Part shown: positions 2,734 through 54,745 of the stretch, one piece after another
Layout of the letters: each line of letters opens with the position of its first letter
Position numbering within the stretch: the stretch's first letter is position 1
Assembly: GCF_003334765.1 (NCBI RefSeq)
Contig: NZ_QOWT01000022.1
Source: Escherichia coli
GTDB lineage: Bacteria > Pseudomonadota > Gammaproteobacteria > Enterobacterales > Enterobacteriaceae
Reading direction: 5' to 3' (one strand)
DNA: 64,000 nucleotides
Translations under genes and position numbers: made by a program
Notes under the pieces: generated by a model
The model's input: the letters and a program-made list of their open reading frames with translations, nothing else
What the model was told of the DNA's origin: nothing
Database searches by the model: none

Positions 2734-3591
2734 CTACTTTAACCAAATATTATAATCCAATCTTCCTACGTATCTTGAAAAAACAGCCAGAGCAATTGCT
2801 TGCCCTACACTTGTTAATTCAATTCCTTGATAGTTGCTCTTTGAAAATTTTTCTAAAAATGCAGACACATGAGGGGCAACTAACTTAAGATTTGAAATAT
2901 ATGCACTCTTATCTTTTATATCAGTCGGATATTTACTCATAAAATAGTCTTCAACATCCATCCCTAAAAAAGTATTCCATGAACAAGCCCCTGCATATTG
3001 AATGTGATATATCTGGGCTTGAGACAAATTAAACCCATTAGTATACATTGATTCAAAGTTTCTAAAATTGTGCTCCAACAAATCCAATCGAACACCATTA
3101 ACAGGGTCTTTGATCTCAACATTCTTGAGAAGAAAAACTATCGTTATAAGTGATATTTGTTGCTGTGTTAACTTGGGAACGACGGTAACTGCCTCCGTTA
3201 AAACTATATCTCTAAAATCGTCATTGTTATTGGAGACTCGTTCAACTAACAACTGAGAAAGCACATCCATATTAGCTTTCTTTCCCTTCCTGGCTGATGA
3301 CTTTAATGCCTCAGTCAATGTAGCCTGAACGTCCGGATCGCAAAATTTATCAATAATCAATCTATCAACGTTTTTTGTTAAATCCGAAACGACACGCTCT
3401 TCAAAATCTTTTGCATTCTCTTGAGCTGCAGCATAAGCAACATCTTTCAATTTTGGAAACTGATTTTCGAAGAGAATGTTGAATAGTTCTCTAACCTCGG
3501 AAAACGACATCCCTGAAACATTTACATTATTTCCAGCTTGAATTGCATACGAATTATTACCTATTTGTTGCTTTTGCTTATCACTAAACAT
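2734..3591 (-). CDS. Hypothetical protein (285 aa), AT-rich cargo; second gene of a two-gene module
   Basis: Start is preceded by GGAGGA directly after the stop of the upstream small membrane protein gene; no family recognised. Confidence 0.6.
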   Translation of the reverse strand: MFSDKQKQQIGNNSYAIQAGNNVNVSGMSFSEVRELFNILFENQFPKLKDVAYAAAQENAKDFEERVVSDLTKNVDRLIIDKFCDPDVQATLTEALKSSARKGKKANMDVLSQLLVERVSNNNDDFRDIVLTEAVTVVPKLTQQQISLITIVFLLKNVEIKDPVNGVRLDLLEHNFRNFESMYTNGFNLSQAQIYHIQYAGACSWNTFLGMDVEDYFMSKYPTDIKDKSAYISNLKLVAPHVSAFLEKFSKSNYQGIELTSVGQAIALAVFSRYVGRLDYNIWLK

Positions 3592-7489: not shown

Positions 7490-7581
7490 ATATAATAATA
7501 TTACTGATGTAAAACGTTTTTTACGTTCATCAGCCTGATATGCCTGGTATTATTAAGAGCACGAATTGTTAACCTGCGTAA

Positions 7582-38848: not shown

Positions 38849-39511
38849 TTAAATCGACGTTCTGCCAAACGCTCCCTGCCAGTCCTGCTCAAACTTCGCC
38901 ACAGCGGCATCAACCGCCGGATAGCTAATCATCTGTTGTGCCACATCCAGTGGCAGAGTAATTGATTCACATCCTGCCAGTAAGCAGTCCAGCGCCTGAC
39001 GCGGGGTTTTGAAACTCGCTGCCAGCACTTTCGCCTGCGGCGCATGCATTTTCAATAACTGGTGTAAGTCGGTCACAGTCTGAATGCCGCTACCGCCCTG
39101 AGCATCAATACGATTAACGTAAGGCGCAACATATTCCGCACCTGCCAGCGCCGACAGCAGCCCTTGTGCTGCGCCATATACCGCGGTTCCCAGCGTCGGA
39201 ATCCCTTCCGCTTTTAACATCTTAATAGCTGCCAGCCCCTCGGCGGTCACCGGAACTTTCACCACGATATCCGCAATAATAGAACGCAGCTTAAGCGCGT
39301 CATTAACCATCCCTTCGGCAGTGGTAGCCATTACCTGGGCAAACAGACGCCCCTGACCGCCCATCGCTTCATGAAGTTGCGGAAGCACAACATCCAGCGG
39401 TTTTTTACCCGCGGCGATAATGCTTGGGTTAGTGGTCACACCCGCCAGCGGAAAAATACGTGACAGCGCCTTCACCGCAACAACGTCTGAAGTATCCAGA
39501 TACAGTTCCAT
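38849..39511 (-). CDS. fsaA: Fructose-6-phosphate aldolase 1
   Basis: Start at [17 protein letters not shown] (220 aa). Confidence 0.85.
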
Positions 39512-39641
39512 AACCATCCTCAAAATGTACTTTTTGTCTGAATGTAGACTATCACGGGAAAACTCTCTGAACAGTTGACGCACATCAATCTAACTTTCAT
39601 TCGAAAGTATTTTAATGCTTGAACGAAATAGAGAGGCAACT

Positions 39642-45597: not shown

Positions 45598-47190
45598 TTA
45601 CTCGATCCCTTTACTACGCAGGTAATCTTCGTAATTACCGCTAAAGTCGATCACGCGTTCCGGGGTGATTTCCAGAATGCGGGTCGCCAGGGAGCTTACG
45701 AACTCACGGTCGTGTGAAACAAAGATCAGCGTGCCCTGATACAGTTCCAGTGCCATGTTCAGCGACTCAATGGATTCCATATCCAGGTGGTTGGTCGGTT
45801 CGTCCATGATCAGAATGTTCGGCTTCTGCATCATTAACTTACCAAACAGCATCCGCCCTTTTTCCCCACCGGAAAGCACTTTAGCTGGCTTTTTGATGTC
45901 GTCCTGGCTGAACAGCAAACGACCGAGAATACTGCGTACCGCCTGCTCGTCATCGCCTTCCTGCTTCCACTGGCTCATCCATTCGAACACGGTCAGATCA
46001 TTTTCAAACTCATATTCGTGGTCCTGAGCATAGTAACCAATGCGCGCGTTCTCAGACCATTTTACGGTGCCGCTGTCCGGTTGCAGATCGCCCACCAGCG
46101 TTTTCAGCAGCGTTGATTTACCGACGCCGTTGGTACCCAGTACCGCCAGTTTTTCACCCACTTCCAGCAGCAGGTTGAGATTTTTAAACAGCGGACCGTT
46201 ATCAAACCCTTTGGTCAGACCTTCCACTTCCAGCGCGTTACGGAACAGTTTCTTATCCTGTTCAAAACGGATGAACGGGTTCTGACGGCTGGAGGCTTTC
46301 ACCTCTTCCAGTTTGATTTTATCAATCTGGCGCGCGCGCGAAGTTGCCTGGCGAGATTTCGAGGCGTTGGCGCTAAAGCGGCTAACGAAAGATTGCAACT
46401 CAGCAATCTGCGCTTTCTTCTTGGCGTTATCGGCCAGCAGACGTTCACGCGCCTGGGTCGCCGCCGTCATGTACTCATCGTAGTTACCCGGATAAACGCG
46501 CAGCTCGCCGTAATCCAGATCCGCCATGTGGGTACAGACCATGTTAAGGAAGTGACGGTCGTGCGAGATGATGATCATGGTGCTGTCACGCTCGTTCAGC
46601 ACCTGTTCCAGCCAGCGAATGGTGTCGATGTCGAGGTTGTTGGTCGGTTCGTCGAGCAGGAGAATATCCGGATCAGCAAACAGCGCCTGCGCCAGAAGCA
46701 CACGCAGCTTCCAGCCAGGAGCAACTTCACTCATCGGGCCGTAGTGCTGTTCCACTGGAATTCCCACGCCAAGCAACAGTTCACCGGCGCGAGCTTCCGC
46801 AGAGTAACCGTCCATTTCGCCGTATTTAACTTCCAGATCGGCCACTTTATAGCCGTCTTCTTCACTCATTTCCGGCAAAGCATAGATGCGGTCGCGCTCC
46901 TGCTTCACTTCCCACAACTCTTTATGCCCCATGATCACCGTATCCAGCACAGTGAACTCTTCAAAGGCAAACTGATCCTGACGCAGTTTACCAATGCGCT
47001 CGTTGGGATCGAGGGAAACGTTACCCAGCGTCGGCTCAAGGTCGCCGCCGAGGATCTTCATAAAGGTGGATTTACCACTACCGTTCGCGCCAATCAGGCC
47101 GTAACGGTTGCCGCCGCCAAATTTGACGGAAATGTTTTCAAACAACGGCTTACTGCCGAACTGCATGGTGACGTTACTGGAAACTAACAC
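45598..47190 (-). CDS. ybiT: ABC-F family ATPase YbiT
   Basis: Two ABC domains ([18 protein letters not shown]); 530 aa. Confidence 0.85.
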
Positions 47191-47408
47191 AGGCGTATCC
47201 TGAAAAGAGATATGACAAACCGCGCATTATGCCATAAGTCTGAAAGAAGATCCTGCTCCTCGCTTAAGGTCTACACTCAAGCCAAAGGCAAAAAATGTGA
47301 TTTCGTACACATCTGATTTCACTGTGAGCTGGAATGAACTTATAATGCGCTTCCAATACTCTAATATTCTCAACCCAATGGCCTGCCAGGCACAAAATCT
47401 CGCTTAAC

Positions 47409-48329
47409 ATGAATATGAAATTGAAAACATTATTCGCAGCGGCCTTCGCTGTTGTCGGCTTTTGCAGTACCGCCTCTGCGGTAACTTATCCTCTGCCAAC
47501 CGACGGGAGTCGCCTGGTTGGTCAGAATCAGGTGATCACCATTCCTGAAGGTAACACTCAGCCGCTGGAGTATTTTGCCGCCGAGTACCAGATGGGGCTT
47601 TCCAATATGATGGAAGCGAACCCGGGTGTGGATACCTTCCTGCCGAAAGGCGGTACTGTACTGAACATTCCGCAGCAGCTGATCCTGCCGGATACCGTTC
47701 ATGAAGGCATCGTCATTAACAGTGCTGAGATGCGTCTTTATTACTATCCGAAAGGGACCAACACCGTTATCGTGCTGCCGATCGGCATTGGTCAGTTAGG
47801 CAAAGATACGCCTATCAACTGGACCACCAAAGTTGAGCGTAAAAAAGCAGGCCCGACCTGGACGCCGACCGCCAAAATGCACGCAGAGTACCGCGCTGCG
47901 GGCGAACCGCTTCCGGCTGTCGTTCCGGCAGGTCCGGATAACCCGATGGGGCTGTATGCACTCTATATCGGTCGCCTGTATGCTATCCATGGCACCAACG
48001 CCAACTTCGGTATCGGCCTGCGTGTAAGTCATGGTTGTGTGCGTCTGCGTAACGAAGACATCAAATTCCTGTTCGAGAAAGTACCGGTCGGTACCCGCGT
48101 ACAGTTTATTGATGAGCCGGTAAAAGCGACCACCGAGCCAGACGGCAGCCGTTATATTGAAGTCCATAACCCGCTGTCTACCACCGAAGCCCAGTTTGAA
48201 GGTCAGGAAATTGTGCCAATTACCCTGACGAAGAGCGTGCAGACAGTGACCGGTCAGCCAGATGTTGACCAGGTTGTTCTTGATGAAGCGATTAAAAACC
48301 GCTCCGGGATGCCGGTTCGTCTGAATTAA
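47409..48329 (+). CDS. ldtB: L,D-transpeptidase LdtB (YbiS)
   Basis: Signal peptide; catalytic HGT...SHGCVR motif. Confidence 0.85.
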
Positions 48330-48387
48330 TCTTCAAAACTTAAAGCAAAAGGCGGACTCATAATCCGCCTTTTTTATTTGCCAGACC

Positions 48388-49506
48388 CTAGTTGGCCGGG
48401 AGTATAACTAACAAAACATATCCCACCAACGCCGCCCACAACAGCATCGGTATTGAATAGAGATGGAAACGCCACCAGATGCGGCGATCGTTCGCCATAC
48501 GTAGCGCAATCAAATTTGCCAGCGATCCGGGTAATAACCCAAAGCCACCTACGTTTACCGCCCATACCAGTAATAAAGACGGCGGCACATAGTTCAGCAA
48601 CAATATGGTACTCGGCACGTTACTGATCACCTGCGATAAACCGATTGCCGTTAACCATAACCCGGGTTCAGATAGATGACTCACGTTACCCAACACGCCT
48701 TGCAACGCTGGAAGCTGGGTCAGTAAATGGACGTCGATAAACATCGCCATAAACACCAGCAGCAGCGTCCAGTCCACACTGAGCACCACGCGACGTGCCA
48801 GCAGCGCAAAGCCTGCCGCCACAATCACCAGTCCCCACAGCTCTTGTTTGAACTCCAGCGCCGTCAGAAAGACGATATACAGCCCCAGACAACTCCACAC
48901 CAGCCGCGGTTTCCACTCCGGTGTTTGCACCCCCGTATGGTATTGCATCGCCTTTCCAGGGAAACAACACCAGCACAGGAGCAGGAGCGTCAGCATCATT
49001 GCGCCAGCCAGCGGTGCCATTTGGGCAATAAATCCGGCAAACGAAAGACCAGAACGTCCCCAGATAAGAATATTTTGCGGGTTGCCAATTGGCGTCAGTA
49101 GCGAACCAGCGTTGACTGCCAGCGCCTCAAAAATAATCAGCCGATTAACCGGGATCTCACACAGTCTTTTTAGCGTGATAGTCAGCGGAACAACAATAAA
49201 CAGCGCGACATCGTTGGTCAGAAAGGTAGAAAGCAGCGCCGCCGCCAGCACCATAAACATCGCCAGCCGACGCTCCGTAGCAAAGCGGCGCACCATTTTG
49301 CGCCCCAGCACATCAAAATAACCGCTTAACTCCACACCTTTGGTCAGCAGCATCAGGCCGCTTAAGGTGATGATGGTGTGCCAGTCGATAGCAGCAGGCC
49401 AGGATTTCGGTGCAAAGGGCACGAAAAAGCTTAATCCGATACCAACAAGAATTAATAACTGAAAAAAACGATCGCCTTGCAGCGTGCGTAAAAAAGGCAG
49501 GCTCAT
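48388..49506 (-). CDS. ybiR: Putative transporter YbiR
   Basis: 372-aa polytopic membrane protein in K-12 synteny. Confidence 0.8.
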
Positions 49507-49970
49507 TTGGCACCGTGTTTCTGGGTAAACAAACGAAAAGCGTCGAGCGTCTCTTCACTAACATGGTGCTCCATGCCTTCCGCGTCGCGACGGGCGATTT
49601 CCGGACTGACGCCCAACACCAACAAGAAATTTTCGACTATCTGATGTCGCTCGCGGCTTTCCTGCGCCAGCTTCTCTCCTTCTGCCGTTAAAAACACGCC
49701 ACGCCAGGGGATCATTTCAATCAGCCCCATGGTTGCCAGCCGCTTAAGCATTTTAGCCACCGTCGGTTGCGAAACTCCCAGACGAGCAGCCATGTCCACC
49801 TGACGAGCTTCCCCCACTTCCCTGATCAAGTCAGAAATCAGCTCAACGTAATCATCAATAAGCTCGCGCCGATGCGCCTCTCTGACCTGGCGGAACCCTT
49901 CAACGTGCTCTTCCACGTTCACTAACTGCGTCACTTTTTTTGCTGTTGGCGTACCTGCGCGACGACTCAT
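49503..49970 (-). CDS. mntR: Manganese-responsive regulator MntR
   Basis: 155-aa DtxR-family sequence. Confidence 0.85.
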
Positions 49971-50063
49971 TGTGCTTCCTCATTATGGTGACGCATACAT
50001 AGCGTTCTCATTTCGTGCGCACATTGTAAACCAGAGTTGCGAAGGTACAAAAAATTAACGTTT

Positions 50064-50096
50064 TAGCAATAGCTATATAATATAGCCTGTGCTATA
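50064..50096. promoter_or_regulatory. Candidate MntR operator(s) in the mntS promoter
   Basis: tagcaATAGCtATAtaaTATAGCctgtGCTATA palindromic repeats upstream of mntS. Confidence 0.4.
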
Positions 50097-50155
50097 TCTG
50101 TATGTAATGCAATCATCCCTCAAGGATCGACGGGATTAGCAAGTCAGGAGGTCTT

Positions 50156-50284
50156 ATGAATGAGTTCAAGAGGTGTATGCGCGTGTTTAGTCATTCTCCC
50201 TTTAAAGTACGGTTAATGCTGCTCTCTATGTTGTGCGATATGGTCAACAACAAACCGCAGCAAGATAAACCTTCCGATAAATAG
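50156..50284 (+). CDS. mntS: Small protein MntS (42 aa)
   Basis: AGGAGG then ATG; translation MNEFKRCMRVFSHSPFKVRLMLLSMLCDMVNNKPQQDKPSDK; below the ORF-track size cut-off. Confidence 0.7.
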   Translation: MNEFKRCMRVFSHSPFKVRLMLLSMLCDMVNNKPQQDKPSDK

Positions 50285-50555
50285 CGGCGTCGCGGTACGC
50301 CGCTTCACTCCTGCTTTCATGCAGGCATAACGCGTTTTGGTCTGAAAAACCCCACTTTTTGTCGGATTTGCAATCCCCTTCGCAAAAGATTTGTTCGTCA
50401 GTAGTTGACCTGAACGGCGGCTCGCTCTATCTTCTTGCAGCCCTGCGTATATTGCGGCTCGCGGATGCGGACCCCTTTCCACTCTTCACGCACTCTTGCA
50501 GGTATTGACCCTTGACGCCAGGGTAAGCACATGGCGTTTGTTACGATAGTGGCAT

Positions 50556-52139
50556 ATGAATTTAACCCTCAAAGAATCGCTTGTTACCCGTAGCCGGGTA
50601 TTTAGCCCGTGGACTGCGTTCTACTTTTTACAGTCGCTATTAATTAACCTCGGCTTAGGTTACCCCTTCAGTTTGCTCTACACCGCTGCGTTTACGGCTA
50701 TTTTGCTTTTGCTATGGCGAACATTGCCTCGCGTACAAAAAGTTCTGGTCGGTGTCAGTTCGCTGGTGGCGGCTTGTTATTTCCCTTTTGCTCAGGCCTA
50801 CGGCGCGCCTAATTTCAATACATTGCTGGCATTGCACTCCACCAATATGGAAGAGTCGACCGAAATCCTGACGATTTTTCCGTGGTACAGCTACCTGGTC
50901 GGCTTATTTATTTTTGCGCTCGGCGTAATAGCAATCAGGCGAAAAAAAGAGAATGAAAAAGCGCGCTGGAATACCTTCGACAGCCTGTGTCTGGTATTCA
51001 GTGTGGCGACATTTTTTGTTGCTCCCGTGCAAAACCTGGCCTGGGGTGGCGTATTTAAACTGAAAGATACTGGCTATCCGGTATTTCGTTTTGCTAAGGA
51101 TGTCATCGTCAATAATAACGAGGTGATTGAAGAGCAAGAACGGATGGCAAAACTTTCCGGAATGAAAGATACCTGGACGGTCACTGCCGTTAAGCCGAAG
51201 TATCAGACCTATGTGGTGGTGATCGGTGAAAGCGCGCGTCGCGATGCCCTCGGTGCCTTTGGCGGTCACTGGGACAATACCCCGTTTGCCAGCAGCGTTA
51301 ACGGTTTGATATTTGCTGACTACATTGCCGCCAGTGGCTCCACGCAGAAATCGCTTGGCTTAACGCTCAATCGCGTTGTCGATGGCAAACCACAGTTTCA
51401 GGATAACTTTGTCACCCTGGCAAATCGCGCGGGCTTCCAGACCTGGTGGTTTTCCAACCAGGGTCAAATCGGCGAATACGATACCGCTATCGCCAGCATC
51501 GCCAAACGAGCAGATGAAGTGTACTTCCTGAAAGAAGGTAATTTTGAAGCAGATAAAAACACCAAAGACGAAGCGTTACTGGATATGACCGCTCAAGTGC
51601 TGGCGCAAGAGCACTCGCAACCGCAGCTGATTGTTCTACATCTGATGGGCTCACATCCGCAGGCCTGCGACAGGACACAAGGAAAATACGAAACCTTTGT
51701 GCAATCGAAAGAAACGTCGTGCTATCTCTATACCATGACGCAAACGGACGATTTACTGCGCAAGCTGTACGATCAGTTACGCAACAGCGGCAGCAGCTTC
51801 TCGCTGGTTTACTTTTCTGACCACGGTCTGGCCTTTAAAGAGCGCGGTAAAGACGTGCAATACCTTGCCCATGATGATAAATATCAGCAAAATTTCCAGG
51901 TGCCTTTTATGGTCATTTCCAGCGACGATAAAGCGCATCGTGTGATTAAAGCCCGCCGCTCAGCCAATGACTTCTTAGGCTTTTTCTCCCAGTGGACGGG
52001 GATTAAAGCGAAGGAAATTAACATCAAATACCCGTTTATATCTGAGAAGAAAGCCGGGCCGATATACATCACCAACTTCCAGTTACAGAAGGTGGATTAC
52101 AACCATCTCGGAACCGATATTTTCGACCCGAAACCTTAA
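50556..52139 (+). CDS. opgE: Phosphoethanolamine transferase OpgE (YbiP)
   Basis: 527 aa; membrane N-terminus plus sulfatase-like domain. Confidence 0.8.
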   Translation: MNLTLKESLVTRSRVFSPWTAFYFLQSLLINLGLGYPFSLLYTAAFTAILLLLWRTLPRVQKVLVGVSSLVAACYFPFAQAYGAPNFNTLLALHSTNMEESTEILTIFPWYSYLVGLFIFALGVIAIRRKKENEKARWNTFDSLCLVFSVATFFVAPVQNLAWGGVFKLKDTGYPVFRFAKDVIVNNNEVIEEQERMAKLSGMKDTWTVTAVKPKYQTYVVVIGESARRDALGAFGGHWDNTPFASSVNGLIFADYIAASGSTQKSLGLTLNRVVDGKPQFQDNFVTLANRAGFQTWWFSNQGQIGEYDTAIASIAKRADEVYFLKEGNFEADKNTKDEALLDMTAQVLAQEHSQPQLIVLHLMGSHPQACDRTQGKYETFVQSKETSCYLYTMTQTDDLLRKLYDQLRNSGSSFSLVYFSDHGLAFKERGKDVQYLAHDDKYQQNFQVPFMVISSDDKAHRVIKARRSANDFLGFFSQWTGIKAKEINIKYPFISEKKAGPIYITNFQLQKVDYNHLGTDIFDPKP

Positions 52140-52143
52140 AAAC

Positions 52144-52172
52144 AAAAATCCGCCCCGAGAGGCGGATTTTTT
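52144..52172. terminator. Bidirectional rho-independent terminator between opgE and ompX
   Basis: aaaaa-tccgcc-ccgagag-ggcgga-tttttt. Confidence 0.6.
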
Positions 52173-52187
52173 ATATCACCAAAGTGA

Positions 52188-52703
52188 TTAGAAGCGGTAA
52201 CCAACACCGGCAATCCAGGTGCCTACGTCAACGCTACGAATACGGCTCTGCTCGTAAGAGAAGTCCAGAGCAACGTTTTCCATCGGGTTGAACTGCAGAC
52301 CCGCACCGTAGGAGAAACCGTAGTCGCTGGTGTCGTGTTTGTAGGTCGGGTATTCAGTGGTCTGGAATTTACCATAACCCACACCCACTACACCGTAGAT
52401 GCTTGCCCAGTCGTTAATGCGGTAAGCCGGACCAGCAGTGATGCCGTAGTACTGGTTTTTGTTGTAGTCACCAGAGCTTGCAGTACGGCTTTTCTCGGTG
52501 TAAGTGAAAGAACCGATCACACCCAGCGGGCTGTTGTCTTCTTCATAGCGGTATTTCAGGTTGAAACCGCCCATTTTGTTCATTTGGCCCTGAGCGTCGC
52601 TCTGTGCGTAACCGCCAGTTACAGTAGAAGTCGCAGCTACGGAAGTACCTGCGGTGAAAGCCAGAACTGCGGCCAGTGCTGAAAGACATGCAATTTTTTT
52701 CAT
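52188..52703 (-). CDS. ompX: Outer membrane protein X
   Basis: MKKIACLSALAAVLAFTAGTSVA...GVGYRF, 171 aa. Confidence 0.9.
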   Translation of the reverse strand: MKKIACLSALAAVLAFTAGTSVAATSTVTGGYAQSDAQGQMNKMGGFNLKYRYEEDNSPLGVIGSFTYTEKSRTASSGDYNKNQYYGITAGPAYRINDWASIYGVVGVGYGKFQTTEYPTYKHDTSDYGFSYGAGLQFNPMENVALDFSYEQSRIRSVDVGTWIAGVGYRF

Positions 52704-53055
52704 AACCACCTCAAATGTGATTCAAATAAGTCCTAAGTTTTAAATATATCAAAAATTAATGGGAAACTCTTCGCGATTTGTGATGTCTAACGGGCCATTT
52801 CATGTAACAGAACGTTTCCATACACCGCTATCCATCTAAATTTAAATCACTTTTTCAGAGAACTGCGTAAGTATTACGCATGTTTTCCCTGTCATTCATC
52901 CAGATTATTCCTAATCACCAGACTAATGATTCCATCAATCCTGGCGCATTTTAGTCAAAACGGGGGAAAATTTTTTCAACAAATGCTCAACCAGCATTGG
53001 GTATATCCAGTACACTCCACGCTTTACTTAAGTCTAGATATTTGTGGGAGAAAGG

Positions 53056-53943
53056 ATGCCTGGTTCATTACGTAAAATGCCGGTCTGGTTACCAATAGTC
53101 ATATTGCTCGTTGCCATGGCGTCTATTCAGGGTGGAGCCTCGTTAGCTAAGTCACTTTTTCCTCTGGTGGGCGCACCGGGTGTCACTGCGCTGCGTCTGG
53201 CATTAGGAACGCTGATCCTCATCGCGTTCTTTAAGCCATGGCGACTGCGCTTTGCCAAAGAGCAACGGTTACCGCTGTTGTTTTACGGCGTTTCGCTGGG
53301 TGGGATGAATTATCTTTTTTATCTTTCTATTCAGACAGTACCGCTGGGTATTGCGGTGGCGCTGGAGTTCACCGGACCACTGGCGGTGGCGCTGTTCTCT
53401 TCTCGTCGCCCGGTAGATTTCGTCTGGGTTGTGCTGGCGGTTCTTGGTCTGTGGTTCCTGCTACCGCTGGGGCAAGACGTTTCCCATGTCGATTTAACCG
53501 GCTGTGCGCTGGCACTGGGGGCCGGGGCTTGTTGGGCTATTTACATTTTAAGTGGGCAACGCGCAGGAGCGGAACATGGCCCTGCGACGGTGGCAATTGG
53601 TTCGTTGATTGCAGCGTTAATTTTCGTGCCAATTGGAGCGCTTCAGGCTGGTGAAGCACTCTGGCACTGGTCGGTTATTCCATTGGGTCTGGCTGTCGCT
53701 ATTCTCTCGACCGCTCTGCCTTATTCGCTGGAAATGATTGCCCTCACCCGTTTGCCAACACGGACATTTGGTACGCTGATGAGCATGGAACCGGCGCTGG
53801 CTGCCGTTTCCGGGATGATTTTCCTCGGAGAAACACTGACACCCATACAGCTACTGGCGCTCGGCGCTATCATCGCCGCTTCAATGGGGTCTACGCTGAC
53901 AGTACGCAAAGAGAGCAAAATAAAAGAATTAGACATTAATTAA
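53056..53943 (+). CDS. rhtA: Threonine/homoserine exporter RhtA
   Basis: Start MPGSLRKMPVWLPIV; DMT-family membrane protein. Confidence 0.85.
   Translation: MPGSLRKMPVWLPIVILLVAMASIQGGASLAKSLFPLVGAPGVTALRLALGTLILIAFFKPWRLRFAKEQRLPLLFYGVSLGGMNYLFYLSIQTVPLGIAVALEFTGPLAVALFSSRRPVDFVWVVLAVLGLWFLLPLGQDVSHVDLTGCALALGAGACWAIYILSGQRAGAEHGPATVAIGSLIAALIFVPIGALQAGEALWHWSVIPLGLAVAILSTALPYSLEMIALTRLPTRTFGTLMSMEPALAAVSGMIFLGETLTPIQLLALGAIIAASMGSTLTVRKESKIKELDIN

Positions 53944-54097: not shown

Positions 54098-54745
<648 letters not shown>

Follow-up and report, generated by a model that had tools for sequence, protein, structure and literature searches.

mntS, a 42-Codon Gene of Escherichia coli, and the Candidate MntR Boxes in Its Promoter

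Introduction

Upstream of a 42-codon open reading frame (ORF) in Escherichia coli lies a cluster of ATAGC/GCTAT palindromes, and the pair raises a simple question: is this locus a translated, manganese-controlled gene, or are the ORF and the repeats to be explained separately, the former as an incidental part of a regulatory RNA and the latter as chance palindromes or as operators serving the divergent gene mntR as much as the ORF itself? We addressed this question in a window of 64,000 nucleotides (the whole stretch of DNA that was analyzed, from contig NZ_QOWT01000022.1). The answer that we favor, with a probability of about 0.95 as the whole explanation, is that the locus is E. coli K-12 mntS, with a sigma-70 promoter, two MntR boxes, repression by Mn-MntR and a small protein product, MntS, that inhibits MntP. 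This gene is already present in the current RefSeq annotation and has been studied experimentally in K-12, so that nothing in the identification is new.

Identity and Context of the mntS ORF

The coding part of the locus consists of two elements.

50156..50284, + strand: mntS coding sequence, 42 codons plus TAG, K-12 b4705 (ORF translation, NCBIfam match and K-12 identity)
50146..50151, + strand: Shine-Dalgarno sequence AGGAGG of mntS, read directly, with 4 nt separating AGGAGG from the ATG

An earlier note, made from the sequence, had claimed a 42-codon ORF with AGGAGG upstream and had recognized its product as MntS; both statements are borne out by our analysis. The ORF begins with ATG and encodes a product of 42 amino acids, MNEFKRCMRVFSHSPFKVRLMLLSMLCDMVNNKPQQDKPSDK, which equals the translation quoted in that note, and AGGAGG is found at 50146-50151. 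The protein scores 96 bits on the NCBIfam equivalog small_MntS (NF033226), whose cut-off is 36 (E = 6.3e-28; positions 1-40 of the 41 in the profile are covered), and the K-12 annotation gives the gene as mntS (b4705). A Pfam-A scan of the 42-aa protein returned zero families at E <= 10, the scanned copy of the library possibly predating the recent PF26599 model. The alignment to K-12 mntS, which had been proposed as a check, gave 100% identity, the coding sequence corresponding to NC_000913.3 852869-852997; indeed, the reverse complement of positions 849500-857000 of K-12 MG1655 (NC_000913.3) equals positions 46153-53653 of the window without a single mismatch over ~7.5 kb (100% identity). 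A 611-nt query spanning the ORF matched 5422 of the 5426 complete E. coli genomes; among the matches listed all are annotated as mntS and opgE, plus mntR where the match reaches that far.

The gene was presumably overlooked by the ORF track, as the earlier note states, for one reason only, namely that its ORF is shorter than the typical length cut-off: the default minimum of the open-reading-frame listing is 60 aa, and the 42 aa of mntS fall under it. The sole ORF of at least 60 aa that overlaps mntS is antisense and encodes 89 aa (50213-50482, - strand). We judged it spurious as a gene, given that it overlaps both mntS and a conserved hairpin and that K-12 has no gene annotated there.

The genes around mntS are the following.

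49503..49970, - strand: mntR, manganese-sensing regulator of the DtxR family, K-12 b0817 (NCBIfam equivalog NF008273, score 269 bits, cut-off 153)
48388-49506, - strand: ybiR, K-12 b0818 (annotation transferred from NC_000913.3)
50556-52139, + strand: opgE, K-12 b0815 (annotation transferred from NC_000913.3)
52188-52703, - strand: ompX, K-12 b0814 (annotation transferred from NC_000913.3)

The position of mntR on the minus strand, with mntS on the plus strand, confirms the divergent arrangement described in the earlier note. The order ybiR-mntR <> mntS > opgE seen in the window recurs in all 8 loci from other genera. The stop of mntR and the start of ybiR overlap by 4 nt (49503-49506), an overlap also present in the eight other genera examined and consistent with a translationally coupled operon. 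On the other side, opgE is preceded by TTGACC-17-TATCTT (50405-50433), a promoter-like site that is conserved, and by the conserved leader elements CCCTTGACGCCAGGG at 50509-50523 and GCACATGGCG at 50527-50536; an upstream ORF starting from a conserved ATG at 50531 was considered and ruled out, since a 1-nt indel shifts its frame and length between genera. Farther downstream, the 21-codon yliM (K-12 b4736; 52756-52821, - strand; product METFCYMKWPVRHHKSRRVSH) lies upstream of ompX and is another annotated small protein gene in the window under the 60-aa ORF threshold.

Promoter of mntS and Its Candidate MntR Boxes

The features of the promoter are given here together with the transcript to which their positions refer.

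50089..50428, + strand: RybA RNA (b4416), equivalent to the mntS mRNA (exact identity with NC_000913.3 852725-853064, annotated as a 340-nt ncRNA)
50055..50060, + strand: -35 hexamer TTAACG of the mntS/rybA promoter (PMC3946193), invariant in 9 genera
50076..50081, + strand: -10 hexamer TATAAT of the mntS/rybA promoter, read directly, its last base 7 nt upstream of the RybA 5' end
50063..50076, no strand assigned: candidate MntR box 1, TTAGCaataGCTAT, with one mismatch, at -26..-13 of the annotated RybA start, its centre 19 bp from that of box 2
50082..50095, no strand assigned: candidate MntR box 2, ATAGCctgtGCTAT, a perfect inverted repeat, at -7..+6 of the annotated RybA/mntS start
50079..50108, - strand: promoter-like site ATTACA-18-TATATT facing mntR-ybiR, from a consensus scan, overlapping both boxes

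The mntS promoter has been given as TTAACG-16-TATAAT (Shimada et al. 2014, PMC3946193); by direct count its spacer is 15 nt (50061-50075) rather than 16. A consensus promoter scan did not report this promoter on the plus strand, as the scan needs a spacer of 16-18 nt and the actual one has 15. The pentamers that compose the boxes are ATAGC at 50069-50073 and 50082-50086, GCTAT at 50072-50076 and 50091-50095, and TTAGC at 50063-50067; the start of the locus in the earlier note, 50064, lies 1 nt inside box 1. The two boxes flank TATAAT and cover the annotated transcription start, and this overlap with core promoter and start is compatible with repression.

Comparison across 9 genera shows that the block 50046-50109 has a mean column identity of 95.5%, versus 76% and 70% in its intergenic flanks, and that the boxes themselves reach 96-99% versus 70-76% for the flanking intergenic DNA. 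Invariant columns amount to 13/14 in box 2 and 12/14 in box 1, the variable ones falling in the 4-nt spacers; the half-sites are thus invariant in all 9 genera, whereas the spacers and the -10 hexamer vary. From motif identity, position and conservation we infer, with considerable strength, that MntR occupies precisely boxes 1 and 2.

Possible Face-to-Face Promoters and a Prophage in the Operator Region

The boxes might also have a second role, as shared operators of overlapping face-to-face promoters that would serve the autoregulation of mntR as much as the repression of mntS. The promoter-like site ATTACA-18-TATATT, predicted by the consensus scan at 50108..50079 on the minus strand, overlaps both boxes and is given as the mntR-ybiR promoter in PMC3946193, and its -35 region (TGTAAT on the plus strand, 50103-50108) falls within the conserved block; however, the same conserved bases constitute positions +8..+20 of RybA, which is another possible cause of their conservation. 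We consider this sharing of operators a real possibility, albeit one that we would not bet on, and it supplements the main explanation rather than competing with it. The same scan found a further promoter-like site on the minus strand, ATGAGA-18-CATAAT, at 50011..49982.

A separate observation concerns the isolate AHB29 (NZ_OZ547246.1), which carries a ~32-kb prophage of the P2 family between mntR and mntS. Alignment of its two junctions (positions 7548-7780 and 39360-39546 of the extracted locus L013) shows that they share the core GCT(A/T)TATAATATAGC, equivalent to ~50072-50086 of the window, so that a P2-family attB appears to lie within the region of the mntS -10 hexamer and MntR operator. 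On the mntS side of AHB29, TATAAT and box 2 are kept while the -35 hexamer and box 1 are lost; on the mntR side, box 1 is kept. The junction between integrase and mntS recurs in 23 of the 5426 complete genomes of E. coli, and the CI/integrase module of the prophage has no close match among deposited phages. Combining these data with the predicted face-to-face promoters, one may speculate that the 33-bp stretch with the two boxes mediates MntR autoregulation of mntR-ybiR and doubles as a prophage attachment site that rewires manganese control, a combined proposal that we regard as rather unlikely. If it were true, mntS would have its -35 hexamer and box 1 replaced on lysogeny, and mntR the right half of box 2 together with the -35 region, and manganese control could be rewired in lysogens. 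That a few strains have a prophage in the operator offers a modest lead on how manganese regulation varies in nature.

RybA RNA and the Coding Constraint on mntS

The K-12 annotation of a 340-nt ncRNA, rybA, across the ORF invites the view that RybA is mainly a non-coding regulatory RNA, with the mntS ORF incidental or secondary to base-pairing. RybA has been described as seven species, from 205 to ~400 nt, with a common 5' end and each containing the mntS ORF (PMC4361602). It is said to regulate genes of aromatic amino-acid biosynthesis under peroxide stress (Gerstle et al. 2012, as cited in PMC4361602), and Martin et al. (PMC4361602) leave possible an sRNA role in other contexts. Conserved elements beyond the ORF, namely a hairpin that follows the stop codon and some stretches of the 3' region, could be accommodated by the same view.

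50283..50304, + strand: 8-bp GC-rich hairpin over the mntS stop codon (from folding; GCGGCGTCGCG is invariant in 9 genera)

This hairpin is, nevertheless, the only clearly conserved structure in RybA. The fold of a 232-nt transcript does not show unusual global structure relative to shuffled sequences (z = -0.72), a search of Rfam over 49000-51500 at E <= 1 gave no family for RybA, and conservation within the region is lowest in the leader at 50110-50145 (70% across 9 genera). The sequence following the hairpin (to ~50312) is TTCATTTT in most other genera and TTCACTCC in E. coli, the T tract of the latter being degraded in comparison. Although a consensus scan around mntS called no terminator, we consider it probable, judging from fold and conservation, that the hairpin is a weak terminator or 3'-end element of the ~205-nt RybA species; the degraded T tract makes the putative terminator of E. 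coli look weakened, in agreement with the ladder of RybA species from 205 to ~400 nt. The annotated 3' end of RybA (50428), for its part, lies inside the promoter-like site TTGACC-17-TATCTT that precedes opgE.

The ORF, in contrast, bears the marks of a translated gene. Its frame is kept in 9 genera without frameshifts, at a length of 41-43 aa, and a GGAG-like purine-rich stretch ahead of the ATG is retained in all of them. Nineteen residues are invariant, including E3, C7, H13 and C27, and the variable columns are distributed as 12/6/27 over codon positions 1/2/3. This predominance of third-position substitutions, together with the kept frame, is what purifying selection on a translated gene would be expected to leave. 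Among 5.8 billion proteins searched there were 136 relatives; nearly all of those with a source name are named MntS, and a precomputed match to PF26599.1 is present in all 120 relatives listed of the 136. The genera represented are Escherichia, Shigella, Citrobacter, Salmonella, Klebsiella, Kluyvera, Kosakonia, Enterobacter, Trabulsiella and Silvania, in agreement with the published finding that the mntS ORF is recognizable only in close enterobacteria (PMC4361602). The coding signature, the score of the ORF above the NCBIfam equivalog cut-off and published genetics, in which the phenotypes of MntS overproduction are Hfq-independent and credited by the authors to the protein instead of the RNA (PMC4361602), all speak against a mainly non-coding RybA, which we consider very improbable; in the form of an 'RNA only' function, coding signature and published genetics already contradict it. 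A further role at the level of the RNA may exist next to that of the protein, the hairpin after the stop being the one structural feature found in its support.

The ATAGC-N4-GCTAT Motif in Other MntR-regulated Promoters

To return to mntS as a gene controlled by MntR, the motif of its boxes also occurs at the other known targets of the regulator. Within the window, an exact box, ATAGCcggtGCTAT, is found in the dps promoter at 54179-54192, its end lying 50 nt ahead of the start codon of dps (54242, + strand); the gene has been published as a target of MntR (Yamamoto et al. 2011, as cited in PMC5553809) and this box is probably its known operator. In K-12, mntH has the motif just upstream, ATAGCctttGCTAT, while mntP has two upstream copies, TTAGCcaaaGCTAT and ATAGCttagGCTAT. 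The mntH box (positions 3224-3237 of the extracted K-12 locus L010) lies inside the annotated small ORF ypeD (b4819; 3188-3277 of the same locus), which overlaps the 5' end of mntH in K-12. ATAGC-N4-GCTAT is therefore common to all four promoters published as MntR-regulated, namely those of mntS, mntH, mntP and dps (regulatory list in PMC4207228). Both mntP and mntS have two boxes, one of which is a TTAGC variant; however, the centres of the mntS boxes are separated by 19 bp, with the -10 hexamer between the boxes, a geometry of repression, whereas the mntP boxes stand 40 bp from each other and are situated ~370-420 bp upstream of the ATG of mntP, a gene that is activated by MntR (PMC4207228).

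How often the motif would arise by chance was estimated with shuffled windows. For exact ATAGC-N4-GCTAT, the expectation is 0.06 copies in a shuffled window; the actual window has two, a number reached in 0 of 100 shuffles. When one mismatch is allowed, the 3 copies found are not above chance (1.69 expected; 22 of 100 shuffles reach 3). Because the one-mismatch count alone is not significant, the significance of the boxes rests on exact matches, positions and cross-genus conservation. That the repeats are a product of chance in an AT-rich promoter, with a TATAAT that is near-palindromic with its neighbours, or the sites of another regulator is the least probable of the readings considered here, and a most improbable one: the one-mismatch count would suit it, but both exact copies are in promoters of published MntR targets, the motif recurs upstream of mntH and mntP, the half-sites are those that stay invariant where spacers and -10 hexamer vary, and repression of mntS dependent on manganese and MntR has been published. 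The suggestion of the earlier note that the upstream palindromes fit MntR operators is accordingly supported by a motif that is shared with mntH, mntP and dps, overlaps the -10 hexamer and start, and is near-invariant in nine genera.

Proposed Mechanism of Manganese Control

What was computed in the present work comprises the identity of the ORF and its coding substitution pattern, as well as the motif, where it lies with respect to the promoter and how far it is conserved; repression dependent on manganese and MntR, action at the level of the protein, and binding and inhibition of MntP are taken from the literature. MntR:Mn acts as a repressor of mntS transcription (Waters et al. 2011, as cited in PMC4361602, PMC9315381 and PMC4207228), and in the RegulonDB curation table MntR is entered as repressing mntS, with manganese treatment as the condition (PMC4207228). 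The MntS protein is conserved and expressed (PMC4361602), and it binds and inhibits MntP (bioRxiv 10.1101/2023.06.02.543501). Raised cellular manganese via MntS has been published for the identical K-12 protein.

Integrating these results with the architecture of the locus, the following sequence of events may be proposed. The sigma-70 promoter (TTAACG, 15 nt, TATAAT) would direct synthesis of RybA RNA from ~50089, the only conserved coding content of which is the 42-codon mntS ORF with its strong Shine-Dalgarno sequence. When manganese is plentiful, Mn-MntR, the product of the divergent neighbour gene, would sit on the boxes and block RNA polymerase, repression thus being most likely exerted by promoter occlusion from two adjacent boxes, as their placement suggests. 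When manganese is scarce, MntR would leave the DNA and MntS would be made; binding of MntS to the MntP exporter would then inhibit efflux, and cytoplasmic manganese would rise. A manganese-dependent self-association has been proposed to switch MntS off (bioRxiv 10.1101/2023.06.02.543501).

Since mntS/RybA, its repression by Mn-MntR and the action on MntP are all already known from publications, the discovery value of the locus is small. Its value is rather that of a control case, in which a functional gene of 42 codons escapes an ORF track with a length threshold and yet is recognizable from sequence alone; the 21-codon yliM of the same window is likewise invisible to such a track.

Comparison with Known Systems

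The closest known system is K-12 MntS itself (b4705, YP_009029995.1), encoded within RybA (b4416), and between it and the locus analyzed here there is no difference in DNA, protein or gene context. By its mode of action MntS resembles MgtS, AcrZ and KdpF, proteins of fewer than 50 aa that are stress-induced and act by binding a larger membrane protein; the sequences, however, are unrelated, and MntS inhibits an exporter. A relationship in sequence has been reported instead for signal peptides from one SitA subclade (SitA being the periplasmic component of the manganese importer SitABCD), which are described as homologues of MntS with similar length and a link to MntR, and as able to replace MntS (bioRxiv 10.1101/2023.06.02.543501). 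MntS differs from SitA in being a free-standing cytoplasmic regulator of 42 aa, without the mature SitA domain.
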